64,000 nucleotides of DNA, from contig JBOHKK010000001.1 in NCBI GenBank assembly GCA_050729115.1, positions 2,947-66,946 on the forward strand. Direction: 5' to 3'. The first letter of the stretch is position 1. Every line of letters begins with the position of its first letter. A program made the translations under genes and the position numbers. The stretch is from Geminicoccaceae bacterium. Lineage in GTDB: Bacteria; Pseudomonadota; Alphaproteobacteria; Geminicoccales; Geminicoccaceae. Under the pieces are notes generated by a model that ran no database searches, had not been told where the DNA came from, and worked only from the letters and a program-made list of their open reading frames with translations. Shown here one piece after another: positions 9,166-56,912 of this stretch.

Positions 9166-9281
9166 CGCACCCCTTGCCCGGTCGACTGACAACATGGTCC
9201 CGGCGAGGGACCGTGCCCTCGCCGGGACCGCAGATCAAGCCGGGATCTTAGCAGGATCCCGGTCGCCGTATTCGTACGCCG

Positions 9282-10574
9282 TCATGCGAAGGGATAGATC
9301 CACTCCGCCGCGGCGGCGTCGTCCGGCGCCACGACCGGCTTGGTCAGCTCGCCGCCGTCGCCCTCCTGAACCTGGAGCATGACGCGATCCGCCGCGAGCT
9401 GCAGCCCGGAATTGGGCGAATCCAGCGGCGCCACCTCGTAGGGATTGTAGATGGTCGTGGTCTTGAGCGCATACATGGCGTCGCGGATCTTCTCCAGGTC
9501 GTCGATGCTGCCGACCTGCTTGATCGCGATCTCGAGGATCTGCGCCCCGCCGTAGCCGCCGGCGGAGTGGTACTCGGGCAAGGTGCCGTACTTGGCCTGA
9601 TACGCCGCGATGTATTCCTGCGCGCCCGGGAAGTCGACCGTGGTCACCCAGTCCGAATCGCCGGTCACGGTCAGGGCGTCCTGGCCGAGCGTCTGCTCGA
9701 AGTCGGGCAGGGCGACGCCGACCAGCAGCGACAGGATGTTGGGCTGGTAGCCGAGCGAGCGCACCGCCCGCGTGATTCCGATCGCATCCGGCAGATAGCC
9801 GCCGCCGGCGAGAACCGTGGCGCCGGACCCCGAAGCCCGCTCGACGATCGGCGTCCAGTCGGTGATCTTGGTGGGATAGGCGGCATCGTGCACGATCCGC
9901 ATGCCGTCCTCTTTTGCGCGCGCGCGGATCGCCTCCGCCGAGTTGCGCGGGAACTCGGTGTCCTCGTAGACGATCGCGATGGTCTCGTCGCCGTGTGCGT
10001 TCGCGGTCTCGGTCAGACCGGGCAGGCGCTTGCTCGCCGGCGGCTGGATCTGCACCTGCCACTGCAGGCTCCGGTCGGTCCAGATGGCGGTGCTCGAGGC
10101 CATCGGGTTGGGCGTCGGGATCTGGGCCTGCTCGATCACCGGCGCGACCGCGTTGGTCACGGCGCTGCTGTAGGGCCCGAGCAGCAGGTCGACCTCCTGG
10201 TTGTAGATCAGCTCGTTGTAGAGCCGCACGCCGGTCGTCGGGTCGCTGCGGTCGTCCAGCACGATCAGCTCCACCGGCCGGCCGAGCAGCCCCGTGGCGC
10301 TGGTGTTGGGCAAATCAGCCTTGCCGAAGCTGTGGCCGAACTGGTTGATGTGCTCGACCCAGAGCTGATAGCCGCGATGCTCCTCCTCGCCGGTCCGCGC
10401 GTACTTGCCGGTCAGCGAGAGGGAGGCCCCGATCCGGATCGGCTGCTCCTGGCTCAGGACATGGGGTGCCCTGGCGAGGACGACGGTCGCTCCGGCGGCC
10501 GCGCCGGCCACCTTGACGAAATCGCGCCGGGTCTGCCCGACCCGCCTGGGGCGGATTTGCTTGGATGAAGACAT
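9282..10574 (-). CDS. ABC transporter substrate-binding protein (Leu/Ile/Val-binding family, Tat-type signal)
   Basis: ATG at 10572..10574 with a GGGAGAG RBS. Starts MSSSKQIRPRRVGQTRRDFVKVAGAAAG, then IRIGASLSLTGKYA...LLGPYSS, the periplasmic binding protein type I fold pattern. It heads the liv operon. Confidence 0.85.
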   Translation of the reverse strand: MSSSKQIRPRRVGQTRRDFVKVAGAAAGATVVLARAPHVLSQEQPIRIGASLSLTGKYARTGEEEHRGYQLWVEHINQFGHSFGKADLPNTSATGLLGRPVELIVLDDRSDPTTGVRLYNELIYNQEVDLLLGPYSSAVTNAVAPVIEQAQIPTPNPMASSTAIWTDRSLQWQVQIQPPASKRLPGLTETANAHGDETIAIVYEDTEFPRNSAEAIRARAKEDGMRIVHDAAYPTKITDWTPIVERASGSGATVLAGGGYLPDAIGITRAVRSLGYQPNILSLLVGVALPDFEQTLGQDALTVTGDSDWVTTVDFPGAQEYIAAYQAKYGTLPEYHSAGGYGGAQILEIAIKQVGSIDDLEKIRDAMYALKTTTIYNPYEVAPLDSPNSGLQLAADRVMLQVQEGDGGELTKPVVAPDDAAAAEWIYPFA

Positions 10575-24253: not shown

Positions 24254-26707
24254 TCAGGCAGGCTGTGGCGCCGCCTCCCCGACCGGGCGGCCGACACTCA
24301 GGATGGCGTCAAAGAACAGCCGCGGGCGGCCCCAGAGCGAGTTGAAGAAGATCGTGGTCACGCTGACCGCCATCGCCGCCATCGCCCAGACCGGGTAGAG
24401 CAGCCCGGTCGCGGCGATCGGGATGCCGATGCCGTTGAACATGAAGGCGAGCGTCACGTTCTGCACCATCTTGCGGTAGCCGCGCCGGCTGGTCTCGTAG
24501 GCGAGGGGCAGCGCGTCGAGCCGGTTCGACAGGATGATGATATCGGCCGAATCGATCGCGATGTCGGTGCCGCCGCCCATGGCGATGCCGATATCGGCCT
24601 GCATCAGCGCCGGCGCGTCGTTGATCCCGTCGCCGACCATCGCCACCCGGCCGCCGCCCTGGAGTCGGCGCACGATCTCGGCCTTCTGATCCGGCAGCAC
24701 GCCCGCGTGAACCTCCTCGATCCCAGCCTCCTGCGCAATGCGCCGCGCTGCGCGCTCATTATCACCCGTGAGCAGCACGGTCCTGAGCCCGGCCTTGCGC
24801 AGCGTGGCGACCGTCTCGACGGCATCCGGTCTCAGTCCGTCCCCTAGGGCAAGGAGCCCCAGGGCGCGCCCGTCGCGGCCGACCGCGATCACCGTCCGCC
24901 CGGCATGCTCGAGCGCGCTGATCCGCTCGGTGAGGGGCGCGAGATCGATGCCGCGATCGGCCACGAACGTCGGGCTGCCAACCACGACCTCACCGCTGTC
25001 GATGCGGGCGATGACGCCCTGGCCCGGGACCGCCTCGAAGGAGTCGACGTCCGGGGGAACCACGCCGCGATCGAACGCGGTCCTGACCACCGCCTGTGCC
25101 AGAGGATGCTCGGAGGACGCCTCGGCGGCCGCCGCGACGCCGAGAAGGTCGTTCTCGCCGCCATCGAGCGTTTCGATCTCCTGAACGACCGGACGCCCTT
25201 CGGTGAGCGTGCCCGTCTTGTCCAGGATGACGGTGCGCACCAGACGGAACCCCTGGAACGCCTCGCCGGTGCGCATCAGAATGCCGTGCTCGGCGGCCTC
25301 GCCGGCGCCGCGCACGATCGACAGCGGCGCCGAGATGCCGACCGCGCAGGGATAGCCCATGACCAGGACGCTCAGGCCGGCGAACACCGCCCGCTCGACG
25401 TCCGGCTGTCCCGCGAAGAGCCAGGAGCCGAAGAACCAGGCGATGAAGGCCAGGCCCGAAAGTGCCAGAACGGTCGGCGTATAGACGCGCAGCACCCGGT
25501 CGACCAGATGCAGGAGCCCGGGCTTGAGCGCCCGGGCGTCTTCGACCTCGCGGATGACCTTGTGCAGAAAGCTTTCCTCGCCGACCGCGGTCACCTTCAC
25601 CAGAAGCGTACCGGTGCCGTTGATCGAGCCGCCGATCACCGCGTCGCCTTCCTGCTTCTCGACCGGGATCGGCTCGCCGGTGACGAGCGCCTGGTCCACG
25701 GCCGAATGGCCGCTGACCACCTGCCCGTCGACGGGGACGCGCTCGCCCGGGCGGATCCGCACCAGGTCTCCCACGACCACCGCCTCGATCGGCACCTCCA
25801 GCTCTTCGCCGTCGCGCTCGACCCGGGCGGTCTCCGGCTGCAGGTCCAGCAGCCGCTTCACCGCCTGGGAGCTTCGCGTTTTCACGATCAGCGACAGCCA
25901 CTCGGAGAAGATGTGGTAGGTGGTGATCAGCACCGAGACGGCGAAGAACGCTGCGGTCGGATAGTTGGGCGGAGCGAAGATCAGTCCGATGAGGCCACCG
26001 ACGAGGCCGGCGAAGGCGCCGGCTTCGAGCAGTACGTGCTGATTGAGGATGCCCCGGCGCAGCGCCTGGACGGCCATGACCAAGATGTGCTGTCCGACGA
26101 CGAACACCAGCGTGACCGCCAGCGCTGCCGCCAGCCAGGGGATTGCTTGGCCGAGCAGGCCTTGCTGCTTGAGGAGCAGCAACCCCAGCGCTACCGCGCT
26201 CACGCCCACAGCGCCGCCTACCGCCGTCCAAAGGCCACGCGCCCGCAGGACGAGGAAGATGAAGCCCAAGAGACTGGCGATCACGATGCCGTGCAAAAGG
26301 ATCGTGGGGGCGGCGGTGAAGTTGCCGATCAGTGCGATGGTGAGGAGGCTGAAGGCGGTGGCGATCAGGAAGCGACGGCCTTCCCGCACCAGATCCTGCT
26401 CCTCCTCCTCGAACGGCCGGACCTTGCGCGGGTCATGGATCGTATAGCCGATGTCGCGGAGGGTCTGCAGCAGCGCCTCGGCGCGGATGACGGCGGGGTC
26501 GAACTCGACCAGCGTCTGCTCATGCGTCAGGCTCACGGCGACCCTATCGACGCCGGGCAGGCGCCCGAGCGCCTTCTCGATCGTGCCGGTGCAGAGCGAG
26601 CAGTGCAGCCCGCCGATGCGGGCGCGGATACGCGTCCGGTTCGGGCGGCTCGCTGGCTCCTCGCTCCATGGGCGGTGAATTGGCTCGGACACTGCTGCCG
26701 TGCTCAT
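24254..26707 (-). CDS. heavy-metal P1B-type ATPase with N-terminal HMA domain and atypical YPC transmembrane motif
   Basis: ATG at 26705..26707 with a GGAGG RBS. HMA is GGLHCSLCTGTIEKAL. Also [27 protein letters not shown] and GDGINDAPAL. The metal-binding TM helix reads MGYPCAVGISAP instead of CPC. The last TMs read NVTLAFMFNGIGIP and AMAAMAVSVTT. Confidence 0.88.
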   Translation of the reverse strand: MSTAAVSEPIHRPWSEEPASRPNRTRIRARIGGLHCSLCTGTIEKALGRLPGVDRVAVSLTHEQTLVEFDPAVIRAEALLQTLRDIGYTIHDPRKVRPFEEEEQDLVREGRRFLIATAFSLLTIALIGNFTAAPTILLHGIVIASLLGFIFLVLRARGLWTAVGGAVGVSAVALGLLLLKQQGLLGQAIPWLAAALAVTLVFVVGQHILVMAVQALRRGILNQHVLLEAGAFAGLVGGLIGLIFAPPNYPTAAFFAVSVLITTYHIFSEWLSLIVKTRSSQAVKRLLDLQPETARVERDGEELEVPIEAVVVGDLVRIRPGERVPVDGQVVSGHSAVDQALVTGEPIPVEKQEGDAVIGGSINGTGTLLVKVTAVGEESFLHKVIREVEDARALKPGLLHLVDRVLRVYTPTVLALSGLAFIAWFFGSWLFAGQPDVERAVFAGLSVLVMGYPCAVGISAPLSIVRGAGEAAEHGILMRTGEAFQGFRLVRTVILDKTGTLTEGRPVVQEIETLDGGENDLLGVAAAAEASSEHPLAQAVVRTAFDRGVVPPDVDSFEAVPGQGVIARIDSGEVVVGSPTFVADRGIDLAPLTERISALEHAGRTVIAVGRDGRALGLLALGDGLRPDAVETVATLRKAGLRTVLLTGDNERAARRIAQEAGIEEVHAGVLPDQKAEIVRRLQGGGRVAMVGDGINDAPALMQADIGIAMGGGTDIAIDSADIIILSNRLDALPLAYETSRRGYRKMVQNVTLAFMFNGIGIPIAATGLLYPVWAMAAMAVSVTTIFFNSLWGRPRLFFDAILSVGRPVGEAAPQPA

Positions 26708-26834
26708 TGCTGAGACCTCCGGTTCCAAACCGTGGTCGGCGAACCCGCCGACATCGATCGAATTGAATGTGGGGTCCCTACCTACATACGGAGTCAAGCT
26801 CTCTTGCTTCGCTGAACGGCGGTGTTTGCGCGCG

Positions 26835-27509: not shown

Positions 27510-27724
27510 GGCTTACGAGCCGGAACCCGATAGCCACCCTTTTCGATCACCCTGACCAACTGGTCTTCGCTGGCGGTCTGCGGGTCATAGAGGATTCGCG
27601 CCCGGCGGTCCTTGTAGGAAATCTCGGCGGCCCGTACGCCCGGCTGCGCATCGATCAGAGCTTTGATCGTCTCAGCGCAACCCCCGCAGTGCATGCCTTC
27701 GATCGTGAGCGTGACGGATTTCAT
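27506..27724 (-). CDS. cytoplasmic heavy-metal-associated (HMA) domain protein (CopZ/MerP-like, no signal peptide)
   Basis: 72 aa. MKSVTLTIEGMHCGGCAETIKALI carries the GMxCxxC motif. Start and stop overlap the neighbouring genes. Confidence 0.88.
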   Translation of the reverse strand: MKSVTLTIEGMHCGGCAETIKALIDAQPGVRAAEISYKDRRARILYDPQTASEDQLVRVIEKGGYRVPARKP

Positions 27725-32110: not shown

Positions 32111-34645
32111 TCAGACCACGTAGCGATCCCAACCACCGTAATGTTCGGAGCTCCGCTTGCCGCGCGGCAGACTGAGAGCGATCAGCGCCGCCCCGGCGAG
32201 CACACCGGCCCAGGCGCCGAGCAGGGTGGCGCCCGGCAGCAGCCAAGGCGCGGCGATCAGCCAGAGGCCGAACAGGACATTGATGAAGCGCAAGGGCCGC
32301 GCGACCTCGGCCATGGCGCTCACCGCCACGGTGATGGCGAGCGCGCCGATCAAGTGGTCACTGTCCGCCAGCGGCGGTTCGGTGCCGAAGATCAGGCGGC
32401 TGAACATGAGCCAGACGCCCAAGGCGGCGCTCGCAACCAGCGTCCAAGGCACGGTCACCCCCCAGGCCATCGCTGCCCCCATCGTCCGCAGATCCGCCCC
32501 GAAGCCTGGTCGCTCACTCTCCGTGGCGCCCGGCATGGCGCCGCCCTGGAAGAAGGTACGCCAGAAGGGCTTGCCTGCCCGGTGGCTGTGCAGGAGGAAC
32601 TGCCCCATCGCCACGAGCTCGTCGAGCGCGAAGGGGATCATGATCAGCATAGCGAGCGCTGCGAGCAAACAGAGCGTGCAATAGGTACCGATGACGATTG
32701 GCTGGATGATGATGAAATAGATGCTGACGACGCCGAGCGGCACCACGACGATACCGAACAGGACCACCATCCAGGGCATAGTGCGCCAGCGGCGGCGGTC
32801 GCCCATGACGCCCATCAGCACCTCGAACATGTAGCTCACCGCACCGAGGCCGGCGTCGGCGATCGGCCAGGCCTTCGAAACGTCCGAGGTGATGATGACC
32901 TCGGTGCCGTTCAGGCCGCCTCCACCGGAGAAGAACGGTTCCCAAACCCCGTCGACGTGCCCGAGCTGGTAGGCGGCGAGGGAGCGGGCGATGACGAAGC
33001 CGACAAAGCCAAGCGCGATGATGGGCAGGCGCTGCAGGTAGGTCGATGGGGAGTAGGTCCAGCCGGGCGGGGTATCTGAGCTGTCCATCATCCCTTCGCG
33101 GCTCATGCCCGGCATCATCGGCACCAGGATGGCGAAGGCGATGACCAGCGCGCCGATGAAGGTGTCGTTGGCGTAGACCGCAGCGCTCGGCGACCAGAAG
33201 ACGAGCGGCGCGAACAGGAGCCAGATCCCCACTGCGGTATTCGCCCATTGCGCCCACGCGAAGCGCTGAGAGAGAGACAACGCACCGAATGCCATGATCA
33301 GCAGGCCGCTGGTCAGGTCGCTCCAGGCGGTGAGTGCGCTGCGCAACCCGGGCTCCCACAACCCGCGCTCCTCGGTCACGCGTAGCACGCCTTCGCCGAA
33401 GGCCGCATGGTCGAACGTGCCGAAGACGAACGGACTGGCCGCCAGCCAGGCGCCGAGCATGATGTTGAGAAAGTGCACCCAGAGCATGCCGAGGTGCATC
33501 CGCCGCATCCCCTCCATGTGCTCGCGCACCATCTCCTGATGCTCGAGCGGATCGGCGGTGGGCTGCTCCTGCTGATCCTGCTCGACCCGCTTCGCCGCCA
33601 CCCTGGCGGCGTTCAGCTTGTTCGCCCGATACCAGCCGACCGGATCGGCGTCGAGCGCTGCGACGATTTTCGGCAGCGTCCGCCGCAGGGAATGCTTCGG
33701 CTCCCAGCCGAGGACGCTCCGGGCACGAGAGAGGTCGAGCTCGTAGTGGTCGTCGGCGATCTCGACCATCCACGGCTTGATGAACGGATCCTCCTCCAGA
33801 ATCTCGTCCTGGACCCACGCGCCGGTCCTGGCTAAGGCTTTCGGGACTTGGCGTGTCTCCCACTCCTCATCGTGGATGAGCCAGCCGAGCTCGCGCTGAA
33901 TCTCGCCGAAGCTCATCGTCTCCGGCTCGCCGAGGAGGAGCGGAAGCTCGGGCGGCAGCTCCTTGCGGCGCTCGACGATCCGCAGCAAAGCGTCCGTAAG
34001 GTCGTCGAGATGCAAGAAGGGCTGTCCGGTCCGGAGGTCGCCCGGATAGGAATGACTGATGAGCTTGCGCTCATAGATCCGAGAAATCTGTCGAGCGAGG
34101 AAGGCTGAACGGCAGAGATCGTCGTAGACCCCGGCAGGACGCACCAGAACGGCCGGGATGGAACCGCGCTGCTCTTGGATCAGCCGCTCCGTTCGGATCT
34201 TGGATTCCCGGTACGGGAGCTTTGGGTCGATTGGCCAGTCCTCGTCGATCGGTTGCGCACGTTTGCCGGGCGCATGGACCAACATGGTGCTGGCGAAGAC
34301 AAACTGCTCGACCTCGAAGGATTGCAGGCCGCGCAACAGCCGTTCGGTGCCACGAACGGTGACTTGTTCGTATTTCGGATTTGGCTCACCAGTAAGGTCG
34401 AAATAGGCGGCGAGGTGGATTACCGAAGCAATGCGCTCGCCATAGGCCGTTCGCACCCGCCGAAGCGCGGCCTCGACACTCTCTTCGGAAGTCAGATCGA
34501 TGCAGATGCATTCGGCGGCCGGTGGTGGATGAGGCGGCGTCGCACGGTCCAGGCCGACCAGGGCGAAATGGTTGCCCAGCTTTTCGATCAGCGCCGCGCC
34601 GATGAAACCGCTGCTGCCGGTGACGACTACCGTGTCCTTTTCCAT
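32111..34645 (-). CDS. fusion protein: NAD-dependent epimerase/dehydratase (SDR) domain plus polytopic membrane region with SPW-repeat-like and VKOR-like (CxxC) segments
   Basis: 844 aa. N-terminal VVVTGSSGFIGAALIEKL...YRESK (extended SDR). After about residue 385 there are at least 10 hydrophobic helices. Several carry the W-L-x-x-(S/A)-P-(W/F) pattern seen in the SPW protein at 37239..37670. One segment, ...TEVIITSDVSKAWPIADAGLGAVSYMF...IGTYCTLCLLAALAML, resembles the VKOR loop plus the CxxC helix. Confidence 0.7.
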   Translation of the reverse strand: MEKDTVVVTGSSGFIGAALIEKLGNHFALVGLDRATPPHPPPAAECICIDLTSEESVEAALRRVRTAYGERIASVIHLAAYFDLTGEPNPKYEQVTVRGTERLLRGLQSFEVEQFVFASTMLVHAPGKRAQPIDEDWPIDPKLPYRESKIRTERLIQEQRGSIPAVLVRPAGVYDDLCRSAFLARQISRIYERKLISHSYPGDLRTGQPFLHLDDLTDALLRIVERRKELPPELPLLLGEPETMSFGEIQRELGWLIHDEEWETRQVPKALARTGAWVQDEILEEDPFIKPWMVEIADDHYELDLSRARSVLGWEPKHSLRRTLPKIVAALDADPVGWYRANKLNAARVAAKRVEQDQQEQPTADPLEHQEMVREHMEGMRRMHLGMLWVHFLNIMLGAWLAASPFVFGTFDHAAFGEGVLRVTEERGLWEPGLRSALTAWSDLTSGLLIMAFGALSLSQRFAWAQWANTAVGIWLLFAPLVFWSPSAAVYANDTFIGALVIAFAILVPMMPGMSREGMMDSSDTPPGWTYSPSTYLQRLPIIALGFVGFVIARSLAAYQLGHVDGVWEPFFSGGGGLNGTEVIITSDVSKAWPIADAGLGAVSYMFEVLMGVMGDRRRWRTMPWMVVLFGIVVVPLGVVSIYFIIIQPIVIGTYCTLCLLAALAMLIMIPFALDELVAMGQFLLHSHRAGKPFWRTFFQGGAMPGATESERPGFGADLRTMGAAMAWGVTVPWTLVASAALGVWLMFSRLIFGTEPPLADSDHLIGALAITVAVSAMAEVARPLRFINVLFGLWLIAAPWLLPGATLLGAWAGVLAGAALIALSLPRGKRSSEHYGGWDRYVV

Positions 34646-34690
34646 CGTGTGGCTTACCGCCCCTGACTTAGGTAATCGGTTGATCCGTTA

Positions 34691-34807
34691 TTAACGGCTG
34701 GACATCAGATATTTGACCAGCGCCGCAGCAGCGAGGATCAGCACGATGAGCACGACAAGGCCGATCGGGCCCATGCCGCCCATCATCCAGCCCATGCCGT
34801 CCATCAT
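34691..34807 (-). CDS. Met-rich single-TM micro-protein (38 aa), paralog of 43244..43369
   Basis: My own translation: MMDGMGWMMGGMGPIGLVVLIVLILAAAALVKYLMSSR*. GGGAGGG RBS 7 nt upstream. It lies between cueR and the 844-aa fusion gene. A second copy with the same architecture sits in the dsbA-ccmG cluster. Confidence 0.6.
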   Translation of the reverse strand: MMDGMGWMMGGMGPIGLVVLIVLILAAAALVKYLMSSR

Positions 34808-34966
34808 GGCGCGCCCTCCCGCGTGATCCGCATCTACGTGACATACGCTTTGACAACGGCGCAGGCGGCGTAATGTTTCCGGTCGCCGTGCAAGGGGGCG
34901 CGTGCATACGCCGACCAGCACTGCGCTTGGCGCTTTCGCGGGACGCGTGATGCTGGATGGCGCGGC

Positions 34967-35446
34967 TCAATCCCATTCCATGCCCGCTTCGCCGACCTCG
35001 GCTCGTCCGCGTCGGGCACCGTTCGCTCGACCGGCTCCGTTCGCCCAGCCACTCTCCTCGGGATCGGCAAGATCCCTCAGGATCGGGCAGTCGGGTCGGT
35101 CGTCACCGTCGCAGTGGTCCGCCAGATGCTTCACCGTATCCCGCAGTGCCTCGAGCTCTGCGATCTTTGCCTGGAGCTCGGCCACGTGGTCGAGGGCGAC
35201 GCGCTTCACCTCGGCGCTGGACCGGTCGCGGTCGCGCCACAATCCCAAAAGCTGCTCGACGCGCTCCACCGAGAACCCAAGACTTCGCGCCCGTTTGATG
35301 AAGGGCAGCGTATGGACGTCCGAGGTGGTGTAGGCGCGATAGTTGCCGGTGGTCCGCCTGGCCTCGGAAATCAGCCCGATGTCCTCGTAGTAGCGGATGG
35401 TCTTCGCCGGAAGGCCAGACGTCCTTGCGGCTTCTCCAATATTCAT
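34967..35446 (-). CDS. cueR: Cu(I)-responsive MerR-family regulator CueR/HmrR
   Basis: MNIGEAARTSGLPAKTIRYYEDIGLI HTH. C-terminal metal loop CDGDDRPDC (C-8-C, as in CueR). GGAAGGAGG RBS. Confidence 0.88.
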   Translation of the reverse strand: MNIGEAARTSGLPAKTIRYYEDIGLISEARRTTGNYRAYTTSDVHTLPFIKRARSLGFSVERVEQLLGLWRDRDRSSAEVKRVALDHVAELQAKIAELEALRDTVKHLADHCDGDDRPDCPILRDLADPEESGWANGAGRANGARRGRAEVGEAGMEWD

Positions 35447-35714
35447 GGATCCTCCTTCCCTTAGGGCTGTCGGGCGTACAGTTCACAAGGTGCGACCAAT
35501 TGATGCCTGTGCTGAGGCCGCTGAAGGCCGTGTCTGCGCGCAATCACTGCGCACCAGGCGATTGTCATGGCCGCCCTTTCGAGATGCGTCCGCATGATGC
35601 GCACCTGAGTCAACGACGTGGCGATTGATTCCTGCTCGTCGTCAGAGGTGAAATCGATCCTGCCGCGATGCCAGACGTCCTGCTTCTCCGTTCCGGCCCG
35701 GCTCGGGAGAAAGA

Positions 35715-35741
35715 TTGACCTTCCAGTGAGTGGAAGGTCAA
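35715..35741. promoter_or_regulatory. CueR-type operator/promoter, perfect palindrome TTGACCTTCC-N7-GGAAGGTCAA
   Basis: Read directly: ttgaccttccagtgagtggaaggtcaa. It matches the E. coli PcopA architecture (TTGACC, 19-bp spacer containing CCTTCC-N7-GGAAGG). Read on the minus strand, the -10 would be AATCTT (35711..35716), pointing toward cueR. Confidence 0.7.
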
Positions 35742-35756
35742 GGGCGAAGGCGAGGG

Positions 35757-35787
35757 TTGACCTTCCTCCGGCTGGAAGGTCGATGGT
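35757..35787. promoter_or_regulatory. second CueR-type operator/promoter, TTGACCTTCC-N7-GGAAGGTCGA
   Basis: Read directly: ttgaccttcctccggctggaaggtcga, 42 bp (about four helical turns) from the first box. Read on the plus strand, TTGACC - 19 nt - GATGGT. Confidence 0.65.
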
Positions 35788-36019
35788 TAATCCGGTTCAG
35801 CACCCCAGAAAATTGTACGGTCCCTACGCCTAGGGAATGAGCTGCGGCCGTTGCCGCCCAGATGGTCGCGGAGATCGTCAAGCCGCCGCATCCGGCGCCT
35901 TCATGAAGCGCGACTGCGGGGGCGCGGCTGAGTCGAATGGAATTCTGGCGTGCTCGTGGACACAACGTGGGCAGCAGCAACGCCGGGCAAGGGCTGGCCT
36001 CAACAGAGGGAGAGATCCT

Positions 36020-37002
36020 GTGCCGAGCAGGCAACCAGCGTTCGCTACATGGGTGGCCAAGATCCTGGAGCTCGCGGGTGACGCCATCGTCTGTGTCGAC
36101 GAAACTGACCGTGTCTTCTTCTTCAATCGGGCCGGCGAGGCGATGTTCGGGTGCCGCGCCGAGGAAGTCTTGGGCCGGCGAGTCGGTGTTCTCATGCCCC
36201 GGCACTCCCGGCAGGTATACCGGGAATACGTACGCGCCCTCGCCCCCGGGGAGGACATCCGATGGGAAGGGACGGGCCGCCGCAAGGCGGCGAATTCCCA
36301 CTCGAGGCCACACTCTCATGCCAGGATTTTGACGGCCGCCCGGTGCTGATCATCAGCGCACGCGACATCTCCGAACGCCAACGGGCGCGCGAGCATGACG
36401 AGCTGCTGCTGCGGGAGATGGAGCACCGGGTAAAGAACCTTCTGGCCAGTGTCCAGGCCCTGGCGCGGCAGACGCTGTGCGTCAGCCCCTCACCCGAGAT
36501 CTTCGCGGAAAGCTTCATTGAGCGGCTGGCGGCGTTGAGCCGCATTCACGCTCTGCTCATTCAAAGCCGCTGGCGGGGCGCGGCGCTGCACGATCTGGTC
36601 GGCGCTGAGCTGTCACCTTATCGTTCAGAGGAGCGCGGTCATGCCGCGATCAAAGGCGATGCGGTGTTCCTCGACCCAGAGCCGGCGCTGGCACTGAGCC
36701 TGGCGATGCATGAGCTCACAACCAACGCTGCTAAATACGGGGCGCTGTCGGTGCCCGAGGGTCGGGTCGAGGTAGCCTGGGAGGTAGAGGACAGGGGTGC
36801 GGAGCGGTATCTAATGCTGCACTGGGCGGAGCTGGGCGGTCCCGAGGTACAGGAGCCGCAGCGACGAGGTTTCGGGAGTACGCTCCTTGAGCAGGGAATC
36901 ATATCGACGCTCGGCGGGACGGTGGATCTCCGGTTCCCGCCGGAGGGCGTGCGCTGCCAGATCGAGCTGCCGGTTAGCGCCAATCCGGAGCGGCAGCCTT
37001 AG
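36020..37002 (+). pseudogene. PAS-domain HWE-family histidine kinase, frame broken near 36286..36292
   Basis: The PAS part runs in frame 1 from the GTG at 36020 (GGGAGAG RBS): ...IVCVDETDRVFFFNRAGEAMFG...WEGTGRRK. The continuation is in another frame (track ORF 36151..37002): GGEFPLEATLS...ISARDISERQRAREHDELLLREMEHRVKNLLASVQAL...ELTTNAAKYGAL...GFGSTLL (HWE kinase core). An upstream in-frame ATG at 35837 is also possible. Confidence 0.75.
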
Positions 37003-37238
37003 CTCCGGCTCTACAGCACGCTTTGGGCCTCCGGGCGGGAAGCTTGCTGATACCAGGATTGCGCTCTGGGTGCTCGGCGCTAGGCCGGGCAGGATACAAC
37101 CTCCCGAGTTGGGTTTTCGTCCGACGGTAACAGGGCGAGCATGCGTGCATGGGGTCCGTGCGCGCCTGACCTGAATGGCGCACACGGATCCCCGTCACCG
37201 CCGATGGGATGGAACGGTGCGCCAGATGTCGACGCAGA

Positions 37239-37670
37239 TCACCGGCTCGTCGCGGACGCCGTCTTACGGATGTCGTACAGCTCCCATGCCGCCAGAGCGA
37301 AGATCAGCAGGCCCACGACGAGCGTATTCCACGTCGCCACGGCATTGCCGCTGAATCCCAGCACCCATGGTGAGATGACGAGCCACAGGCCGATGAGGAG
37401 ATTCGTCCATTCCTCCCACGCGTGCGCTCCGAGGAGCCCGGCGGCGGCGATCGCCGCAACGACAACGCCGAAGATCCAGGCGTTCCATGCGGCCGCCACA
37501 ACGACACTGCCGGCAGCGGCCGCCTCGGCGGGAGTGCCGACGGTAGTGGCTCCGGAGGCGAACTGCAGGACCCAGGGCGAAATGAACAGCCAGATCGCCA
37601 GGATCAGGTTCGTCCAATCCTGCCAGCGGTTGGCATTGGTGCGCTGCGTCATGAAGCGATTTCGCGCCAT
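37239..37670 (-). CDS. SPW repeat protein
   Basis: ATG at 37668..37670 with a GGAGG RBS, 143 aa. Two repeats, WTNLILAIWLFISPWVLQF and WTNLLIGLWLVISPWVLGF. Confidence 0.8.
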   Translation of the reverse strand: MARNRFMTQRTNANRWQDWTNLILAIWLFISPWVLQFASGATTVGTPAEAAAAGSVVVAAAWNAWIFGVVVAAIAAAGLLGAHAWEEWTNLLIGLWLVISPWVLGFSGNAVATWNTLVVGLLIFALAAWELYDIRKTASATSR

Positions 37671-37847
37671 GACATACCCTCCTACTCCGCTGCCATGTCC
37701 CTTTTGCGGGAGCCGCCCCCACGAGGGGTCGCGCGCTGCCGCCCGGCAGCCACGCCTCATCCCGGAAGCCCAGGGCACCTCCTCGGGGACCATGGCGGTT
37801 GCGATCGGGGCTTCCACCGGTCGAACTAGGTCTCTAGTCGCTGGAAG

Positions 37848-38056
37848 GCCAACGCCCCCGCTGAAACTTCTCTGCTCAGCGAAGTCGGCTGGGCATCTTG
37901 CCAACTGGGGCCAGCAACCCCGTGTTACGTCGCCATGAGAGTCTTGTTTTGGCATCGGATGCGAGGCGGGCTCCTGGCGCTTTTGCTGGGCCTCAGCATG
38001 AGTCTGGCCGTAAGCCACGCCGGTTCCATGTCGGCCGAGATGGCTGTCGCGGCTGA
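37848..38056 (+). repeat. copy A of a roughly 200-bp duplicated segment (upstream region plus first about 41 codons of the exported Cys/His protein gene)
   Basis: By-eye alignment with 39657..39866 gives roughly 75-80% identity. Copy A begins ccaacgccc..ttctctgctSagcgaagtcggctgggcatcttgccaac...ATGAGA...TTTGGCATCGGA...CTCAGCATGAG..GCCACGCC...ATGTC.GCC.AGATGGC. Confidence 0.8.
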
Positions 38057-39398: not shown

Positions 39399-39477
39399 GC
39401 GCCATACCGTTATGTACAACCTCACGTAGAGCCATGTCTCTCGTTTGTATTATGCGGACTTTATTGCGCTTCGTGGG

Positions 39478-39660
39478 ATGGCCCTGGCGATTACGCGTAA
39501 CGACTTATCGGCCGCCGACCTGCGCGCCTTGCGGCGCGGCGGTCGAAGGGCCCCCATCAAGCGCCGGCTGCTGGCGCTTGCGCTTGAAGGCGCCTGGCGG
39601 ACGGCGGCGGCGCGGGCGGCGGACATGGACCGCCAGCCCCTGCGCGACTGGGTGATCCAA
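39478..39660 (+). mobile_element. IS630-family transposase N-terminal (HTH) fragment, truncated
   Basis: MALAITRNDLSAADLRALRRGGRRAPIKRRLLALALEGAWRTAAARAADMDRQPLRDWV resembles the winged-HTH N-terminus of IS630-family transposases. The similarity ends exactly where duplicated copy B starts. No DDE domain is present. Confidence 0.6.
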
Positions 39661-39866
39661 CGCCCACTCCCAAATTTCTCTGCTGAGCGAAGTCGGCTGG
39701 GGCATCTTGCCAACAGCGGCCAACAACGCCATCTTAGGTCACCATGAGACGGTGGCTTTGGCATCGGACGCGAGTTTTGCTCCTAGCGCTCTTGCTGGGA
39801 CTCAGCATGAGCTTGGCCATAAGCCACGCCAGTGCAATGTCCGCCAAGATGGCCGTCTCGGCCGAG
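39657..39866 (+). repeat. copy B of the roughly 200-bp duplicated segment
   Basis: See copy A (37848..38056). Here it is continuous with the intact 117-aa gene and the multicopper oxidase. Confidence 0.8.
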
Positions 39867-40097: not shown

Positions 40098-40221
40098 CGC
40101 CTGACCGTCTGCTCCCGCAGACGACGGCGTCGAGGCCTCCGCGCACCTCAGACGCACGGAGGTGACTTGGCTCTGCCACGCGCGCCAAAGCTGGCCGTAT
40201 CCAAGGGTGAGTTTCCTCGAG

Positions 40222-41685
40222 ATGAAGTCTGCCAGATTCGGACATCTCTCGCGCCGGTCCTTGCTGGCTGCGAGCGGCGCAGCTGCTCTCGCGGCGGTGG
40301 TACGGCCTTGGCCGCTCCGGGCCGGCTCGCCCATCGAGTATCGCCTTGTTGCAAGTCCGGGACGCGCGCATCTGGTCGGCGCGCCATATCCAGAGACCGC
40401 GGTCTGGTCGTACAACGGGACGGTGCCAGGCCCGGAGATCCGGGTGCGCCAGGGCGAACGGCTGCGCGTCGTCGTCGAAAACCGGCTCGGCGAGGAGACG
40501 ACGGTGCACTGGCACGGCCTCCGCGTGCCGAATCCGATGGACGGCGTGCCCGACCTCACCCAGCCGCCGATCGCGCCGGGCGATGAGTTCATCTACGAGT
40601 TCGATGCGCCGGACGCCGGAACCTACTGGTACCACCCGCACCAACGGAGCTTCGAGCAGGTCGGACGCGGGCTTTACGGGCCGCTGATCGTCGAGGAGCG
40701 GCAGCCGATCAAGGTCGACCGCGAGATCACCTGGGTGCTGGACGACTGGCGCCTTGAGCGTGATGCGCAGATCAGCGGCGGCTTCGGCAACTTCATGGAC
40801 GTCAGCCACGGCGGCCGGCTGGGTAACACGGTCACTGTCAACGGCCGCATTCTCGATAGCTTCGCGGTGCGCGCCGGCGAGCGTCTGCGGCTGCGGCTCA
40901 TCAATGCCGCGAACGCGCGCATCTTCGGGTTGGCGTTCCAGGACCACCGACCAACGGTCATCGCGCTCGACGGCCAACCGGTAGAGCCGCATGAGCCGGC
41001 GGAGGGCCGCGTCGTCCTCGGCCCCGCGATGCGGGCCGATCTCGTGGTCGACATGAGCGGCAGGCCGGATAAGCGGTTTACCGTGGCTGACACGTTCTAC
41101 CGCGACCGCGAGTACCGCCTGCTCGATCTCGTTTATGGCAAGGAGCCGCCGCTCCGTGAGCACCCGCTCGATGCGCCGGTGCACCTTGCCGCCAACACCA
41201 TGCCCGAGCCGGATCTAGCAACAGCCGAGCGGCACCAGGTGACCTTCGGCGGCGGCATGATGGGCATGATGATGGCTGGTGGAATGATGGGTGGCGGGAT
41301 GATGGGCGACATGATGAGGGGCACGATGAGGGGCACGACAGGCATGATGACGGGCCGCGGCGTCTGGACCGTCAACGGCGTGTCGGCGACCGGACACACC
41401 CCCAAGCCTTTCCTGACCCTGCGGCGGAACGACTCGTACGTCCTCGCCATGCACAACAACACGTTCTTCCATCATGGGATTCATCTGCACGGACACTCGT
41501 TCCGTGTGATCGCGCGGGACGGCGGACCGACGCGCTATCGCGAGTGGCAGGACACCGTGCTCATGGCGGCGGATGAGCGCGTCGAGATCGCTTTCGTGGC
41601 CGACAATCCCGGCGACTGGATGATCCACTGTCACATGTTGGAGCACCAGGCGGGCGGGATGATGGGCGTGATCCGGGTGGTCTGA
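40222..41685 (+). CDS. multicopper oxidase (CopA/PcoA/CueO-like) with Met-rich insert, Tat signal
   Basis: MKSARFGHLSRRSLLAASGAAALA is a twin-Arg signal. Copper ligands are HWHG, WYHPH and HCHMLEHQAGGMM. The Met-rich insert is GGGMMGMMMAGGMMGGGMMGDMMRGTMRGTTGMMTG (about 41248..41358). Confidence 0.9.
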   Translation: MKSARFGHLSRRSLLAASGAAALAAVVRPWPLRAGSPIEYRLVASPGRAHLVGAPYPETAVWSYNGTVPGPEIRVRQGERLRVVVENRLGEETTVHWHGLRVPNPMDGVPDLTQPPIAPGDEFIYEFDAPDAGTYWYHPHQRSFEQVGRGLYGPLIVEERQPIKVDREITWVLDDWRLERDAQISGGFGNFMDVSHGGRLGNTVTVNGRILDSFAVRAGERLRLRLINAANARIFGLAFQDHRPTVIALDGQPVEPHEPAEGRVVLGPAMRADLVVDMSGRPDKRFTVADTFYRDREYRLLDLVYGKEPPLREHPLDAPVHLAANTMPEPDLATAERHQVTFGGGMMGMMMAGGMMGGGMMGDMMRGTMRGTTGMMTGRGVWTVNGVSATGHTPKPFLTLRRNDSYVLAMHNNTFFHHGIHLHGHSFRVIARDGGPTRYREWQDTVLMAADERVEIAFVADNPGDWMIHCHMLEHQAGGMMGVIRVV

Positions 41686-43998: not shown

Positions 43999-44741
43999 GC
44001 GCCGTGGAGACTGCCATGCGGTTGAAGCCCATCATCGGGGCGGCCGCTGCACTGGTTGTGACCGCGCTGATCGCGGGCGGGGCGTACTTGGCCACGAACA
44101 CCGCGCAGGAAGCGCGAGCGCCTGAGCCCACATCGCCGGCCACGGCGGCATCGACCAAGAAGGGCTTCGCCTTCAGCGCGCTCGAGACGCCGCGGGAACT
44201 GCCCGAGCTGCGCTTCGTGGACGGCGATGGCCGCGAGATGACCCTGGAGGCGTTCGAGGGCAGGACGATCCTGCTCAACATCTGGGCCACATGGTGCGTC
44301 CCGTGCCGGGAGGAGATGCCGGCGCTCGATCGCCTGCAGGCAAAGCTCGGCGGCCCCGACTTCGTCGTCGTGCCGCTGTCGATCGACCGCGAAGGTCTGC
44401 CGGCGGTCAAGGCGTTCTACGAGGAGCTCGGCCTCGAGGCGCTCGGCATCTACGTCGATCAGTCCGGCAAGGCGAGCCGGCAGTTGGGGGCCGTGGGCAT
44501 CCCGACGACGCTGCTGGTCGATAGCGAGGGGCGCGAGGTCGGGCGCACTCTCGGGCCGGCGGAGTGGGATAGCGACGAGATCGTGGAATTCCTGCGCGGC
44601 TTCATCGCGGAGCGACCCGCCGCCGCTTCTCAGCCCGAAATCCCGGGAGAGACGCAGTTTGCCCTGCGTCCGGAGAAGCGCGGCGCCGAGTCGCAGCGCC
44701 ACGTCCCCCTTGCCTTCCAGCCACTGGAAGGAACTATCTGA
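43995..44741 (+). CDS. TlpA-family thioredoxin-like protein (membrane-anchored)
   Basis: The GTG at 43995 overlaps the ccmG stop (GTGA). An alternative ATG is at 44016. Contains LLNIWATWCVPCREEMP and GIPTTLLVD. Confidence 0.8.
   Translation: MSAVETAMRLKPIIGAAAALVVTALIAGGAYLATNTAQEARAPEPTSPATAASTKKGFAFSALETPRELPELRFVDGDGREMTLEAFEGRTILLNIWATWCVPCREEMPALDRLQAKLGGPDFVVVPLSIDREGLPAVKAFYEELGLEALGIYVDQSGKASRQLGAVGIPTTLLVDSEGREVGRTLGPAEWDSDEIVEFLRGFIAERPAAASQPEIPGETQFALRPEKRGAESQRHVPLAFQPLEGTI
44710..44740 (+). promoter_or_regulatory. CueR-type box CCTTCC-N7-GGAAGG embedded in the 3' end of the tlpA-like gene
   Basis: Read directly: cTTGCCTTCCagccactGGAAGGaacTATCTG. It has the same half-sites and N7 spacing as the boxes at 35715 and 35757. 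The -35-like TTGCCT and -10-like TATCTG are separated by 19 nt. Confidence 0.55.
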
Positions 44742-44770: not shown

Positions 44771-45226
44771 ATGGACACATCGCGGACGGTAGCGGCCGAG
44801 AAGTCGTCGCTGGTGCAGGACTGGCTTGGCGCCCTGCGCTACTGGCTCGGCGGCCGGCGGGGTCTGATCGGCTTGGCCGTGGTGCTTGGGTTGGCGGCCA
44901 TCGCGCTGAACTGGGGCTGGCTGGTCGCGGTCGGGATCGCGCCCCTGCTCCTGGCGTTCGCGCCCTGCGCCGCCATGTGCGCGCTCGGCCTCTGCGCGAG
45001 CAGGATGGGCGGAGGATCGTGCTCCAGCAAGACGGGCACCGCGGGCGATGGGACGTCGAAAGCGGCAGGGCCGGAGGCACTGCCCGCCGCGGCACCGGAC
45101 CCGAACCAGCTCACGCTCAGCCTCGACGCTAGCAGCACCGCGACCCGGCCGGCGCTCGTCGCCCCGGCGGCGCCCGAGGGCGCGATTGAAACCCAAACTC
45201 CGGAGGAGGAGAAGATCCATGTCTAG
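44771..45226 (+). CDS. hypothetical membrane protein with Cys-rich helix
   Basis: 151 aa with 2-3 TM. Contains APCAAMCALGLCASRMGGGSCSS, followed by a low-complexity Ala/Pro tail. Confidence 0.55.
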   Translation: MDTSRTVAAEKSSLVQDWLGALRYWLGGRRGLIGLAVVLGLAAIALNWGWLVAVGIAPLLLAFAPCAAMCALGLCASRMGGGSCSSKTGTAGDGTSKAAGPEALPAAAPDPNQLTLSLDASSTATRPALVAPAAPEGAIETQTPEEEKIHV

Positions 45227-50965: not shown

Positions 50966-51418
50966 ATGAACATCGGAACCGTCGCCGAGAGGTCCGGGGT
51001 GCCCCCCAAGACGATCCGCTATTACGAGAGCATCGGGCTCATCCCTTCGGCGGATCGACGACCGAACGGCTACCGGACCTACAGCGTGGTCGACATGCAC
51101 ACGCTCAACTTCATCAAACGGGCCCGCAGCCTCGGATTTTCCGTCGACGAGGTGCGCGATCTCCTCGAGCTCTGGCGTGACAAAAGGCGGACGAGCGCGG
51201 CGGTCAAGGCTTTGGCCACGCGGCACCTGGGCGAGCTCGACCGCAAGATCGCGGAGATCCAGACTATGCGCAGAGCGCTTGGCGACCTCGTCGCGCGCTG
51301 CCGCGGCGATCAGCGCCCCGACTGCCCGATCCTGGATGACTTCAGCCACAATCGAAACGGCTTGGTAGGACTCGATGCCGCGAGCAATTTGCGTGAGCGA
51401 CGAGCCTCAGGCAGCTAG
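50966..51418 (+). CDS. cueR: second CueR/HmrR-type Cu(I)-responsive MerR-family regulator
   Basis: MNIGTVAERSGVPPKTIRYYESIGLI. Metal loop CRGDQRPDC (C-8-C). Clearly paralogous to 34967..35446. Confidence 0.85.
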   Translation: MNIGTVAERSGVPPKTIRYYESIGLIPSADRRPNGYRTYSVVDMHTLNFIKRARSLGFSVDEVRDLLELWRDKRRTSAAVKALATRHLGELDRKIAEIQTMRRALGDLVARCRGDQRPDCPILDDFSHNRNGLVGLDAASNLRERRASGS

Positions 51419-54239: not shown

Positions 54240-54270
54240 TTGACCTTCCATCGACTGGAAACCCTATATG
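54240..54270 (+). promoter_or_regulatory. MerR/CueR-type promoter upstream of copA (19-bp spacer, imperfect dyad)
   Basis: TTGACC - ttccatcgactggaaaccc (19 nt) - TATATG. The left half-site CCTTCC is intact and the right half reads GGAAAC. Confidence 0.55.
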
Positions 54271-54443
54271 CATCGTAGCCGCTAGGCTAGGCCGGCGACG
54301 ACCTTCTTCCGGAGAGTTTCGCGCCCGCCTCGAGGAGGCGGCCCCAGGCCATCACCCGGGCGGGTACACCGGCGAAGAAGAGCTTCTCCGCATGGACCAG
54401 CAACCGAGCGCGAGTGGCTCTGGCAAAGCGTCGAGGGAAGTGG

Positions 54444-56912
54444 ATGAACGAGACCACCGGCGTCACGCGCGAGCGCGTAAAGGATCCCGTCTGCGGCATG
54501 GAGGTCGATCCGGCAACGACCGAGCACCGCGCCGAGCACGAAGGGGTCTCCTACCACTTCTGCTGCCGGCGCTGCGCCGAGGCCTTCCGAAAAGATCCTC
54601 AGGGCGCGCTGGGGAAGATGGTTACGGGCGGTAACGCCCACGCCGATCAAGGCGCCGGTCAGCGGCGGCCAGCCGCAAGCGCCGGCAAGTACATCTGTCC
54701 GATGTGCCCGGGCGTCGAGAGCGAGGAACCTGCCGCCTGCCCGAAGTGCGGGATGGCACTCGAACCCGCAGCTCCCGCCCTTGGCGGCACAAAGGTTCAG
54801 TACACCTGCCCGATGCACCCCGAGGTTGTTCGGGACGAGCCCGGAGAATGCCCGAAGTGCGGCATGGCCCTCGAGCCGATGACGATCTCTGCCGAGACGG
54901 AGAACCCCGAGCTCACCGACATGACGCGACGGTTCTGGGTTGGTGCCGTCCTGACGGTGCCGATCCTGGTTCTCGCGATGGGCAGTTACATTCCAGGGCT
55001 GGGGCCGCTCCTCGAGCAGCTCGTCCCGCATGACGTCTCCAGATGGCTGGAGCTCCTCCTTGCGACCCCTGTCGTGCTTTGGGCCGGCTGGCCGTTCTTC
55101 CAGCGGGGCTGGAAGTCGGTGGTCACCTGGAACCTCAACATGTTCACGCTGATCGCGATCGGCGTCGGTGCGGCCTACGCCTACAGCGTCGTCGCGACGC
55201 TGGCCCCGGGCATCTTCCCGGCGGCTTCTCGCTACGCGTCGGGCACGATCGGTGTCTACTTCGAAGTGGCGGCCGTCATCGTCGTGCTGGTGCTGTTGGG
55301 ACAGGTTCTGGAATTGCGGGCGCGGGAAAGGACGGGTGGTGCTTTGCGCGCGCTGCTCGACCTCGCGCCCCAGACCGCCCGGCGTCTCAAGGACGACGGC
55401 GACGAGGAGGAGATCGCGCTCGCACAGGTCCACGAGGGCGACCGCCTGCGCGTGCGCCCGGGCGACAAGGTGCCGGTCGATGGCGAGGTGCTGGACGGGC
55501 GCAGCGCCGTCGACGAATCCATGGTGACCGGCGAGCCCATCCCCGTCGAGAAGACCGCGGGCGACAAGGTCATCGGAGGCACGGTGAACGGCACCGGCGG
55601 CTTCGTGATGCGAGCCGAGCGCGTCGGCAGCGAGACCATGCTCGCGCAGATCGTGCAGATGGTGGCGGAAGCGCAGCGCTCGCGGGCGCCGATCCAGCGG
55701 CTTGCCGACGTCGTGGCCGGCTACTTCGTGCCGGCGGTCGTGGCGGTGGCCGTGCTGGCCTTCATCGCGTGGGCGATCTGGGGGCCGACCCCTGCGATGG
55801 CGCATGCGCTCGTGGCCGCGGTCGCGGTCCTGATCATCGCGTGTCCCTGCGCGCTCGGCCTGGCGACGCCGATGTCGATCCAGGTCGGCGTCGGCCGTGG
55901 CGCGCAGGCGGGCGTGCTGATCAAGAGCGCCGAGGCGCTCGAGCGGCTGGAGAAGGTCGATACGCTGGTGGTCGACAAGACCGGCACGCTCACGGAAGGC
56001 AAGCCGCGCGTCGTTACCGTCGACGCCGGCGACGGCATCGGCCAGGACCGACTTCTGCGGCTTGCGGCCAGCCTCGAGCGTTCCAGCGAGCATCCGCTCG
56101 CCGCCGCGATCGTCGAGGCTGCCAGGGAGCGGGGGGTCAGGCTGGCCGAGACCCGCGATTTCGACGCACCGACCGGGAAGGGCGTCGTGGGCATGGTCGA
56201 GGACCATCGCGTCGCTCTCGGCAATGCTCGCCTGATGGACGATCTGCGCCTGGAGGCCGGCCGGTTCGCCGCACGGGCGGAGGAGTTGCGCCGGGATGGC
56301 CAGACGGTGATGTTCGTCGCGCTCGACGACGCGGTGGCCGGCCTGATCGGCGTGGCGGACCCGATCAAGACGACGACTCCGAAGGCGATCCGGGATCTCC
56401 GGGCGGACGGCTTGCGGATCGTCATGCTGACCGGCGACAACCGGACGACGGCCGAGGCGGTCGCCCGCAAGCTCGACATCGACGACATCGAGGCCGAGGT
56501 CTTGCCGCAGGAGAAAGGCGAGGTCGTCAAGAAGCACAAGTCCGAAGGTCGCATCGTCGCCATGGCCGGGGACGGCGTCAACGACGCCCCCGCGCTCGCC
56601 GAGGCCGACGTCGGCATCGCCATGGGCACCGGCACCGACGTCGCGATCCAGAGCGCCGGCGTCACCCTGATCAAAGGCGACCTCGCGGGCATCGTGCGCG
56701 CGCGACATCTGAGCCGGACGGTGATGCGCAACATCCGGCAGAACCTGTTTCTCGCCTTCGTCTACAACTCGCTCGGCGTGCCGGTGGCGGCGGGCGTGCT
56801 CTATCCGGTCTTCGGGCTGCTGCTGAGCCCTATCATCGCCGCCGCGGCCATGAGCCTGAGCTCGCTCTCCGTCGTCAGCAATGCGCTGCGTCTGCGAGCG
56901 GCGCGCATCTAA
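54444..56912 (+). CDS. copA: Cu(I)/Ag(I)-translocating P1B-1 ATPase (CopA/SilP-like) with YHS/TRASH-like and CxxC...[11 protein letters not shown]-terminal modules
   Basis: N-terminal DPVCGMEVD...YHFCCRRC, then two copies of C-P-M-x-P...[10 protein letters not shown]. Also [37 protein letters not shown]7 YN (FVYNSLGVP) and TM8 MSLSS. ATG at 54444 (GGGAAG RBS); the track start at 54414 is a GTG. Confidence 0.92.

Follow-up and report, generated by a model that had tools for sequence, protein, structure and literature searches.

Two CueR-type promoters stand back to back in the window (the whole 64-kb stretch of DNA analysed here), and together they probably represent a half-orphaned divergent copper cassette. 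Box 1 (35711..35741, minus strand) would drive cueR and two downstream genes in a copper-inducible manner, and box 2 (35757..35787, plus strand) is probably vestigial. This reading is based on the sequence architecture of the pair, its generality, relics of lost genes, a second syntenic contig, and a pattern of conservation.

Activation by DNA distortion is an established mechanism of MerR/CueR regulators (summarized in PMC10187127), and we infer CueR binding, copper induction, and leader read-through at this locus along the following lines. A CueR dimer would bind the CCTTCC-N7-GGAAGG dyad, which lies within a 19-bp spacer that is longer than usual. Upon binding Cu(I), CueR would kink and under-wind the spacer, which would align the TTGACC -35 and the -10 for RNA polymerase, and transcription would then proceed outward from each box. 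The cassette appears to have been stripped of its normal cargo by recombination and decay. On the plus side, box 2 would face a frameshifted copZ 5' relic and then a broken kinase, and any transcript that starts there would be non-productive. On the minus side, the old cueR 5' end would have been replaced, and box 1 would read through a leader of ~258 nt into cueR, a micro-ORF, and a gene fusion. As a result, cueR, the micro-ORF, and the fusion would be copper-inducible, and cueR would be positively autoregulated.

The box pair and its counterparts in other genomes

Box 1 is TTGACCTTCC-AGTGAGT-GGAAGGTCAA (35715-35741, 27 bp), a perfect 11+11 palindrome, and box 2 is TTGACCTTCC-TCCGGCT-GGAAGGTCGA (35757-35783, 27 bp). 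The distance between them is 42 bp, start-to-start and centre to centre, and each has 0 mismatches to ACCTTCC-N7-GGAAGGT. In box 1, the -35 TTGACC runs from 35741 to 35736, the dyad CCTTCC-N7-GGAAGG covers 35719-35737, and the -10 AATCTT runs from 35716 to 35711. Box 2 has its -35 TTGACC at 35757-35762, its dyad at 35761-35779, and its -10 GATGGT at 35782-35787. Both -10 hexamers are exactly 19 bp from their own -35, and A2 and T6 are present in each. The inner -35 hexamers are separated by an inter-box spacer of 15 nt (35742..35756), and the predicted transcription starts are near 35704 (box 1, minus strand) and near 35794 (box 2, plus strand). A first-pass annotation of this DNA had described two PcopA-type CueR palindromes 42 bp apart, and the sequence matches that description exactly, with TTGACC and the 19-bp spacer confirmed.

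With up to 1 mismatch allowed, CCTTCC-N7-GGAAGG occurs 3 times in the 64-kb window compared to ~0.15 expected, and a count of 3 was reached in 0 of 100 shuffles. Across the whole assembly (6.35 Mb, 631 contigs), dyads fused to a TTGACC -35 are confined to this contig. A chance origin of the box pair is excluded.

Orientation was assessed with a position weight matrix derived from 185 natural CueR-type promoters, and only positions free of the search pattern were scored. Read outward, box 1 (leftward) falls at the 43rd percentile of the natural sites and box 2 (rightward) at the 12th; read inward, they fall at the 6th and 2nd percentiles, respectively. The outward percentiles are higher than the inward ones, and the boxes therefore stand back to back and face outward. 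The weight-matrix scores are 18.2 for box 1 and 12.0 for box 2, compared to a mean of -27.8 and a maximum of 7.7 for random 40-mers from the window. The -10 hexamers GATGGT and GATGCT are found at natural sites (L064 and L161, respectively). A terminator scan flagged box 1 as an intrinsic terminator on the minus strand; this candidate was rejected because no minus-strand gene lies upstream of it.

The same back-to-back arrangement is widespread. When one genome per species was scanned for GGAAGGTCAA-N5-30-TTGACCTTCC, at least 120 loci (L005-L124) were obtained, ~111 of them genuine; chance matches in the whole collection were estimated at ~28 (20 specified bases, 26 gap lengths, two strands, 596 Gb). 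The full double promoter is present at nearly all of the at least 120 listed loci. Flanking genes were assigned to classes by applying HMMs to the first ORFs within 150 nt of each -10. Among the matches listed, copA faces copZ at 83 loci, another gene at eight, and cueR at six. The remaining classes are copZ/other (six loci), cueR/other (four), copZ/cueR (two), and copZ/copZ (two), and nine listed loci have no copper gene and look like chance matches (e.g., Lachnospiraceae, Streptomyces). The copZ class encodes proteins of ~67 aa that correspond to Pfam HMA, and among the matches listed these genes start at a median of 24 nt past the -10. In the window's own family, one genome (G013) has a back-to-back pair between an ATPase gene of the YHS type and a Tat-signal gene.

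The box pair is a common, known divergent copper promoter cassette and not a new element. The divergent promoter pair that had been proposed agrees with the outward weight-matrix scores and with the same layout in more than 100 other genomes. The first-pass annotation had also presented the sites as "tandem" palindromes. The sites are indeed paired, but they do not form a special device; they form the ordinary copZ<->copA/cueR cassette, here missing its normal cargo. Two tandem palindromes of this kind are an ordinary regulatory cassette and need no special explanation.

Inner -35 spacing is bimodal across the pairs among the matches listed, with modes of 14-16 nt and 24-28 nt and few intermediate values. 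When the loci were dereplicated to 95 groups, the bimodality remained (19 groups at 14-15 nt and 62 at 24-28 nt), and the 15-nt spacer in the window is within the short mode of 14-16 nt. The modes are roughly one helical turn apart, which would place both CueR dimers on the same relative face in either case, and spacers of the long mode usually have a central A/T tract. In a full-text literature search, no study devoted to the double back-to-back CueR operator itself was found, nor was any paper on bimodal inter-box spacing.

A second contig with the same arrangement

The CueR in the protein collection that is closest to the one encoded in the window is 88% identical, and it is encoded on a 2.6-kb metagenomic contig (L147; GCA_030155625.1 JALYEW010016466.1). 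Compared with window 35807..34964, which includes both boxes, the leader, and cueR, this contig has 88% identity, and the block ends exactly at the cueR stop codon. In the wider comparison with window 35807-33238, the contig runs downstream of cueR through the micro-ORF start into the fusion gene, and this cargo is only ~70% identical. The pattern suggests that the boxes, leader, and cueR move as one unit, and that a sensor-plus-promoter module has been exchanged by recombination independently of its cargo. L147 is the only other known instance of the arrangement. When leader orthologues were sought in 40 relatives and in 107 genomes of the family, only the boxes were matched; a metagenome scan with a conserved 20-mer from the leader gave three unrelated chance matches, and a plasmid search with the block matched the cueR coding part alone.

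Conservation differs among the parts of the block. The first, second, and third codon positions of cueR are 93, 94, and 85% identical, respectively, between the two contigs, which indicates purifying selection. Relative to L147, changes are found at 4 of 40 positions in the operator arms, 2 of 12 in the -10 hexamers, and 12 of 29 in the N7 loops and inter-box spacer, and the spacer also has a 3-nt length change. The plus-side flank is changed at 37 of 82 positions. Operator arms are better kept than the N7 loops and spacer (p = 0.0035) and better kept than the plus-side flank (p = 8e-5). They are not better kept than the third codon positions of cueR (4/40 vs. 24/159, p = 0.61), and with divergence that is synonymous-like, selection on the arms therefore shows only relative to their immediate neighbours.

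Both promoters have retained their 19-bp spacing and A2/T6 in L147. The arms of box 1 are identical at 18 of 20 positions, and its TTGACC is kept; the -35 of box 2 has changed to CTGACC. Only 7 of the 15 spacer positions are identical. These comparisons moderately favour continuing constraint on the operators, and on box 1 in particular.

The leader as a whole is 85% identical to that of L147 (38 of 252 positions changed). Its 5' block (35625-35700) is unusually conserved, with 5 of 76 positions changed compared to 34 of 177 in the remaining leader (p = 0.013). On the minus strand, this block has no start codon or evident structure, and it overlaps part of a putative cueR relic.

Genes on either side and the surrounding copper island

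On the plus side, a putative 5' relic of copZ, which encodes an HMA copper chaperone, lies at 35834..35911. It was detected with a DNA profile of 76 copZ genes found beside other pairs (nhmmer, E = 7.2e-4 over the whole window), and it ranks third in the window behind two real HMA sequences. The match has 13.8 bits and is dominated by the CxxC codons. Its alignment includes ATG-AGC-TGC-GGC-CGT-TGC (MSCGRC, in the context GMSCGRC); past this point, one base is inserted and the frame stops prematurely. The motif M[ST]CxxC occurs twice in the 124,398 six-frame residues of the window. The relic is in the expected place and on the expected strand, 3' of box 2. Because a protein HMM alone gave no significant match to copZ (E = 7.6), the assignment is probable and not proven. 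Neither protein HMM nor DNA profile found ATPase similarity at 35447-35714 or 35788-36030. On the plus side, homology with L147 collapses ~20 nt beyond the -10 of box 2, and L147 itself ends near window 35913, before the kinase gene. Since the codons of the copZ relic are unrecognisable in L147, copZ was probably already dead in the common ancestor of the two contigs.

The next gene on this side (36020..37002) encodes a PAS-HWE histidine kinase and starts at a GTG at 36020. Its Pfam PAS and HWE_HK matches are in two frames; a frameshift occurs within PAS at ~36290, and the PAS motif carries on in another frame past it. An independent Logan assembly of run SRR27067772 shows the identical frameshift, so the kinase is frame-broken in both assemblies. 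The first-pass annotation had pointed box 2 toward a frameshifted PAS-HWE kinase, and the frame break is as it described.

If both promoters were used, they could define a wider, non-canonical CueR regulon in which box 2 makes the PAS-HWE kinase copper-inducible, bringing in two-component signalling, and box 1 controls the redox fusion. All promoter features are present in box 2, no terminator was found ahead of the kinase start at 36020, and the ATG of the copZ relic shares its reading frame with the kinase ORF. Against this, codon-position GC is coding-like only from 36020 on, and the 183 nt between the relic ATG and the kinase start (35837-36019) are not coding-like. The kinase frame is broken in PAS in both assemblies, homology with L147 is lost before the kinase is reached, and no kinase is among the recurrent neighbours of the at least 120 other listed pairs. 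We therefore consider this wider regulon improbable, and the earlier suggestion that signalling genes belong to a CueR regulon here is not supported. The copZ relic and the broken kinase indicate instead that box 2 is probably vestigial, as in the half-orphaned cassette proposed above.

To the right of the kinase are a truncated SDR gene, a duplication of ~210 nt, and, on the opposite strand, an ORF with an SPW domain. Judged from its sequence, the plus-side region is a recombination-scarred mosaic.

Several features of this region were recorded individually. The SPW-domain ORF (37239-38018, minus strand, 259 aa) has an SPW repeat domain (Pfam E = 8e-26) that is also the C-terminal domain of the 844-aa fusion. 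An overlapping 265-aa ORF on the plus strand (37141-37938) has no family match and is probably spurious. The two copies of the duplication (37848-38056 and 39657-39866) have ~78% identical columns, and they span the upstream region and first codons of the gene for a 117-aa Cys/His exported protein that precedes the multicopper oxidase gene. A fragment at 39445-39650 that resembled IS630 by eye was not confirmed by Pfam.

The window as a whole is a copper/metal island, and no canonical partner gene touches the box pair. The nearest ATPase gene on one side encodes a P1B-ATPase (24254-26797, minus strand). A second P1B-ATPase gene, of the YHS/HMBD copper type, is on the plus strand (54414-56912, listed from GTG 54414). 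The island also contains a copZ-like gene (~27521-27713, minus strand), a multicopper oxidase gene (40162-41685), and genes for ScsC/DsbA, two TlpA-like redoxins, SCO1, and DUF411. The earlier remark that neither promoter drives a canonical copA or cueO is true of the immediate neighbours, though two P-type ATPases and one multicopper oxidase are encoded elsewhere in the window. Four genes of the MerR family are present, and only those at 34967-35446 and 50966-51418 pass the CueR equivalog cut-off. The second paralogue (50966-51418) has 160.1 bits on TIGR02044 (cut-off 147.4).

Additional CueR-type sites are found in the island. A single promoter at 54240-54272 (plus strand) has TTGACC, 19 nt, and TATATG with the dyad CCTTCC-N7-GGAAAC, and its score corresponds to the 49th percentile of natural sites. 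The promoter precedes the YHS/HMBD copper ATPase ORF and has no back-to-back partner. The site at 44709-44740 (plus strand) reads cTTGCCTTCC-AGCCACT-GGAAGGAAC-TATCTG; its -35 is off consensus, and its -10 is one base farther from the dyad than usual. This site is just 5' of an ORF for a 151-aa Cys-containing membrane protein (44771-45226), behind the two genes for TlpA-like redoxins.

With these promoters nearby, the boxes could serve mainly as extra CueR binding sites, acting as decoys or a buffer that tunes free CueR for the promoters at 44709-44740 and 54240-54272. The pair does offer two perfect operators, one of them on a side with no productive gene, and the island encodes two paralogues of CueR and contains at least two further promoters of this type. 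Nothing specific favours titration, however, and two sites set against a regulator made at the same locus would provide very little buffering. Decoys would also have no need of the outward -10 elements, which are kept in both lineages. This role is very improbable.

On the minus side, the half-orphaned reading depends on the path from box 1 to cueR. An untranslated leader of ~258 nt (35447..35704) would extend from the predicted start of box 1 to cueR. It contains no ORF, no start codon occurs in its first 80 nt, and its GC3 is only 0.67-0.71. There is no fold signal in the leader (z-scores 0.17 and 0.07) and no Rfam family, the only match being a meaningless miRNA hairpin built from the two boxes. 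No recognisable terminator or alternative sigma-70 promoter was found between box 1 and cueR, and a consensus scan of 34600-36200 found no other promoter. The first-pass annotation had proposed that box 1 can transcribe cueR, the micro-ORF, and the 844-aa fusion by way of a leader of similar length, and this agrees with the absence of such signals from the leader and with the synteny that recurs in L147. Elsewhere, where cueR follows such a box, it starts ~32 nt past the -10 (among the matches listed), and the 258-nt leader is unusual by comparison, which counts against the preferred explanation.

Two other interpretations of the leader were rejected. A coding or structured leader is at odds with the lack of an early start codon, with indels relative to L147 that break every frame, and with fold z-scores of about 0. 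An ATPase relic was sought with a protein HMM built from 69 ATPases and with a DNA profile built from the 5' ends of 72 ATPase genes, and the best match had E = 0.32 in a tiny search space. With no ATPase relic in the leader, it cannot be shown that copA was simply deleted in place.

A probable relic of a cueR 5' end is located at 35662..35689 on the minus strand, 22 nt past the -10 of box 1. It consists of GGAGAAGC, a 4-nt gap, and AGGACGTCTGGC. Nucleotides 21-49 of the leader align locally to nucleotides 9-41 of intact cueR, and 6 of 1000 dinucleotide shuffles score equally. When 5' ends alone were compared, 0 of 1000 shuffles were as good, in what is a post hoc test of a short match. A cueR DNA profile (nhmmer) did not detect the relic. 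Its position suggests the remnant of an earlier cueR that started right after box 1, as in several other loci.

The intact cueR (34967..35446, minus strand) encodes a 159-aa Cu(I)-responsive activator of the MerR family with Pfam MerR domains. It has 169.9 bits on the TIGR02044 CueR equivalog (cut-off 147.4), and the gene has its own ribosome-binding site (GGAAGGAGG). CueR homologues at 70-72% identity are encoded in co-directional copZ-copA-cueR operons behind a single box, and the arrangement in the window is therefore secondary. Downstream of cueR, the micro-ORF (34691..34807, minus strand) encodes a Met-rich, single-helix protein of 38 aa (MMDGMGWMMGGMG...) and has a GC3 of 0.82. It is predicted as a gene in the Logan contig, and its N-terminal stretch is also present in L147. 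The fusion gene (32111..34645, minus strand) encodes 844 aa with Pfam NAD-dependent epimerase/SDR, VKOR-like, and SPW membrane domains, and it is the putative last gene of the box 1 transcription unit.

Conservation and context could also be read to mean that the whole cassette is dead. Both boxes would then be unused, transcription of cueR and the later genes would start at an unrecognised promoter, either within the leader or between cueR and the micro-ORF, and the boxes would persist for want of decay time. Both original partner genes are gone or decayed, and the region is a recombination mosaic. Arm divergence (10%) is not different from synonymous-site divergence (15%), and L147 has CTGACC as the -35 of box 2 and a changed inter-box spacer length. 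A well-conserved stretch at ~35475-35505, just 5' of cueR, could hide a promoter, although the consensus scan located none. Other evidence opposes complete decay: the arms have changed significantly less than the neighbouring N7 and spacer bases and the copZ-relic flank, both boxes score within the natural range for this promoter type, and the box-leader-cueR unit is intact in two lineages. We consider a wholly dead cassette unlikely, though less so than the wider regulon or the decoy role.

The half-orphaned cassette accommodates both sides of the locus. The first-pass annotation had offered either an orphaned module or a non-canonical regulon, and the locus appears to be a mixture of the two, orphaned on the plus side and rewired on the minus side. 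A bolder version of this reading, which is possible but somewhat short of probable, is that box 1 is live, that Cu(I)-CueR directly controls both the 38-aa Met-rich membrane micro-protein and the 844-aa fusion, and that cueR is positively autoregulated. In that case, the boxes, leader, and cueR would constitute a portable module placed before varied cargo. If this is true, the micro-protein and the SDR/VKOR-like fusion would be new effector members of the CueR copper-stress regulon.

Full-length homologues of the fusion are found in eight other genomes among 400 sampled from the class. In seven of the eight, no CueR box is present within 6 kb of the homologue, and copper genes lie within 6 kb only in G170. 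The link between CueR and the fusion, as far as these neighbourhoods indicate, is confined to copper islands, namely those in the window, in L147, and perhaps in G170, and is not a general property of the family.

In G170 (L138, G170:C2), two outward sites occur at 9200-9400, ~130 nt apart, each with a perfect TTGACCTTCC-AACGATG and degenerate right arms (GCAGGC, GCAAAC). One site is directed toward a CBS-domain gene followed by the 844-aa fusion homologue, and the other toward a membrane gene. A canonical CueR box precedes a multicopper oxidase gene ~1 kb further on. The CueR-type sites before the CBS-protein-fusion pair are suggestive only.

The locus may serve as a dated example of copper-island rebuilding, in which the sensor-plus-promoter survives and the cargo is swapped or decaying. 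It also bears on whether the widespread, unstudied SDR/VKOR-like fusion and the Met-rich micro-protein are copper-induced targets of CueR.

Comparison with known copper and mercury systems

The E. coli PcopA dyad is quoted as ACCTTCC-N7-GGAAGGT (PMC10187127). As in E. coli PcopA and PcueO, the window promoters have the identical dyad, a -35 TTGACC that overlaps the left arm, and a 19-bp spacer, and a CueR equivalog is encoded nearby. PcopA and PcueO are single promoters, and cueR is unlinked to them; the window has two promoters, back to back and 15 nt apart, and neither faces copA or cueO.

The closest likeness is to the copZ<->copA/cueR cassette of Alpha-, Beta-, and Gammaproteobacteria, which has the same inner inverted repeat (GGAAGGTCAA...TTGACCTTCC), the same outward orientation, and the 14-16-nt spacer mode. 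Unlike the copZ<->copA form of this cassette, the window has no intact copZ or copA beside the pair, and copZ is represented by a putative relic. The minus promoter also differs in that it would reach cueR past a 258-nt leader, followed by the micro-ORF and the SDR/VKOR-like fusion.

In Haemophilus influenzae, cueR is divergent from the chaperone gene of a copZ(n)-copA operon across a short intergenic region controlled by CueR (PMC10187127). That region has one CueR box, and the proposed PcueR is an ordinary promoter with a 17-bp spacer that overlaps the box (PMC10187127). In contrast, each direction in the window has its own complete CueR-type promoter.

The locus also resembles the classical mer operator (merR<->merTPAD) in having a regulator of the MerR family, divergent transcription, and a promoter with a 19-bp spacer. 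The two overlapping divergent promoters of mer share one operator, and MerR acts as a repressor of merR. Unlike mer, the window has two separate operators, and their geometry predicts that cueR would be activated rather than repressed by its own product.
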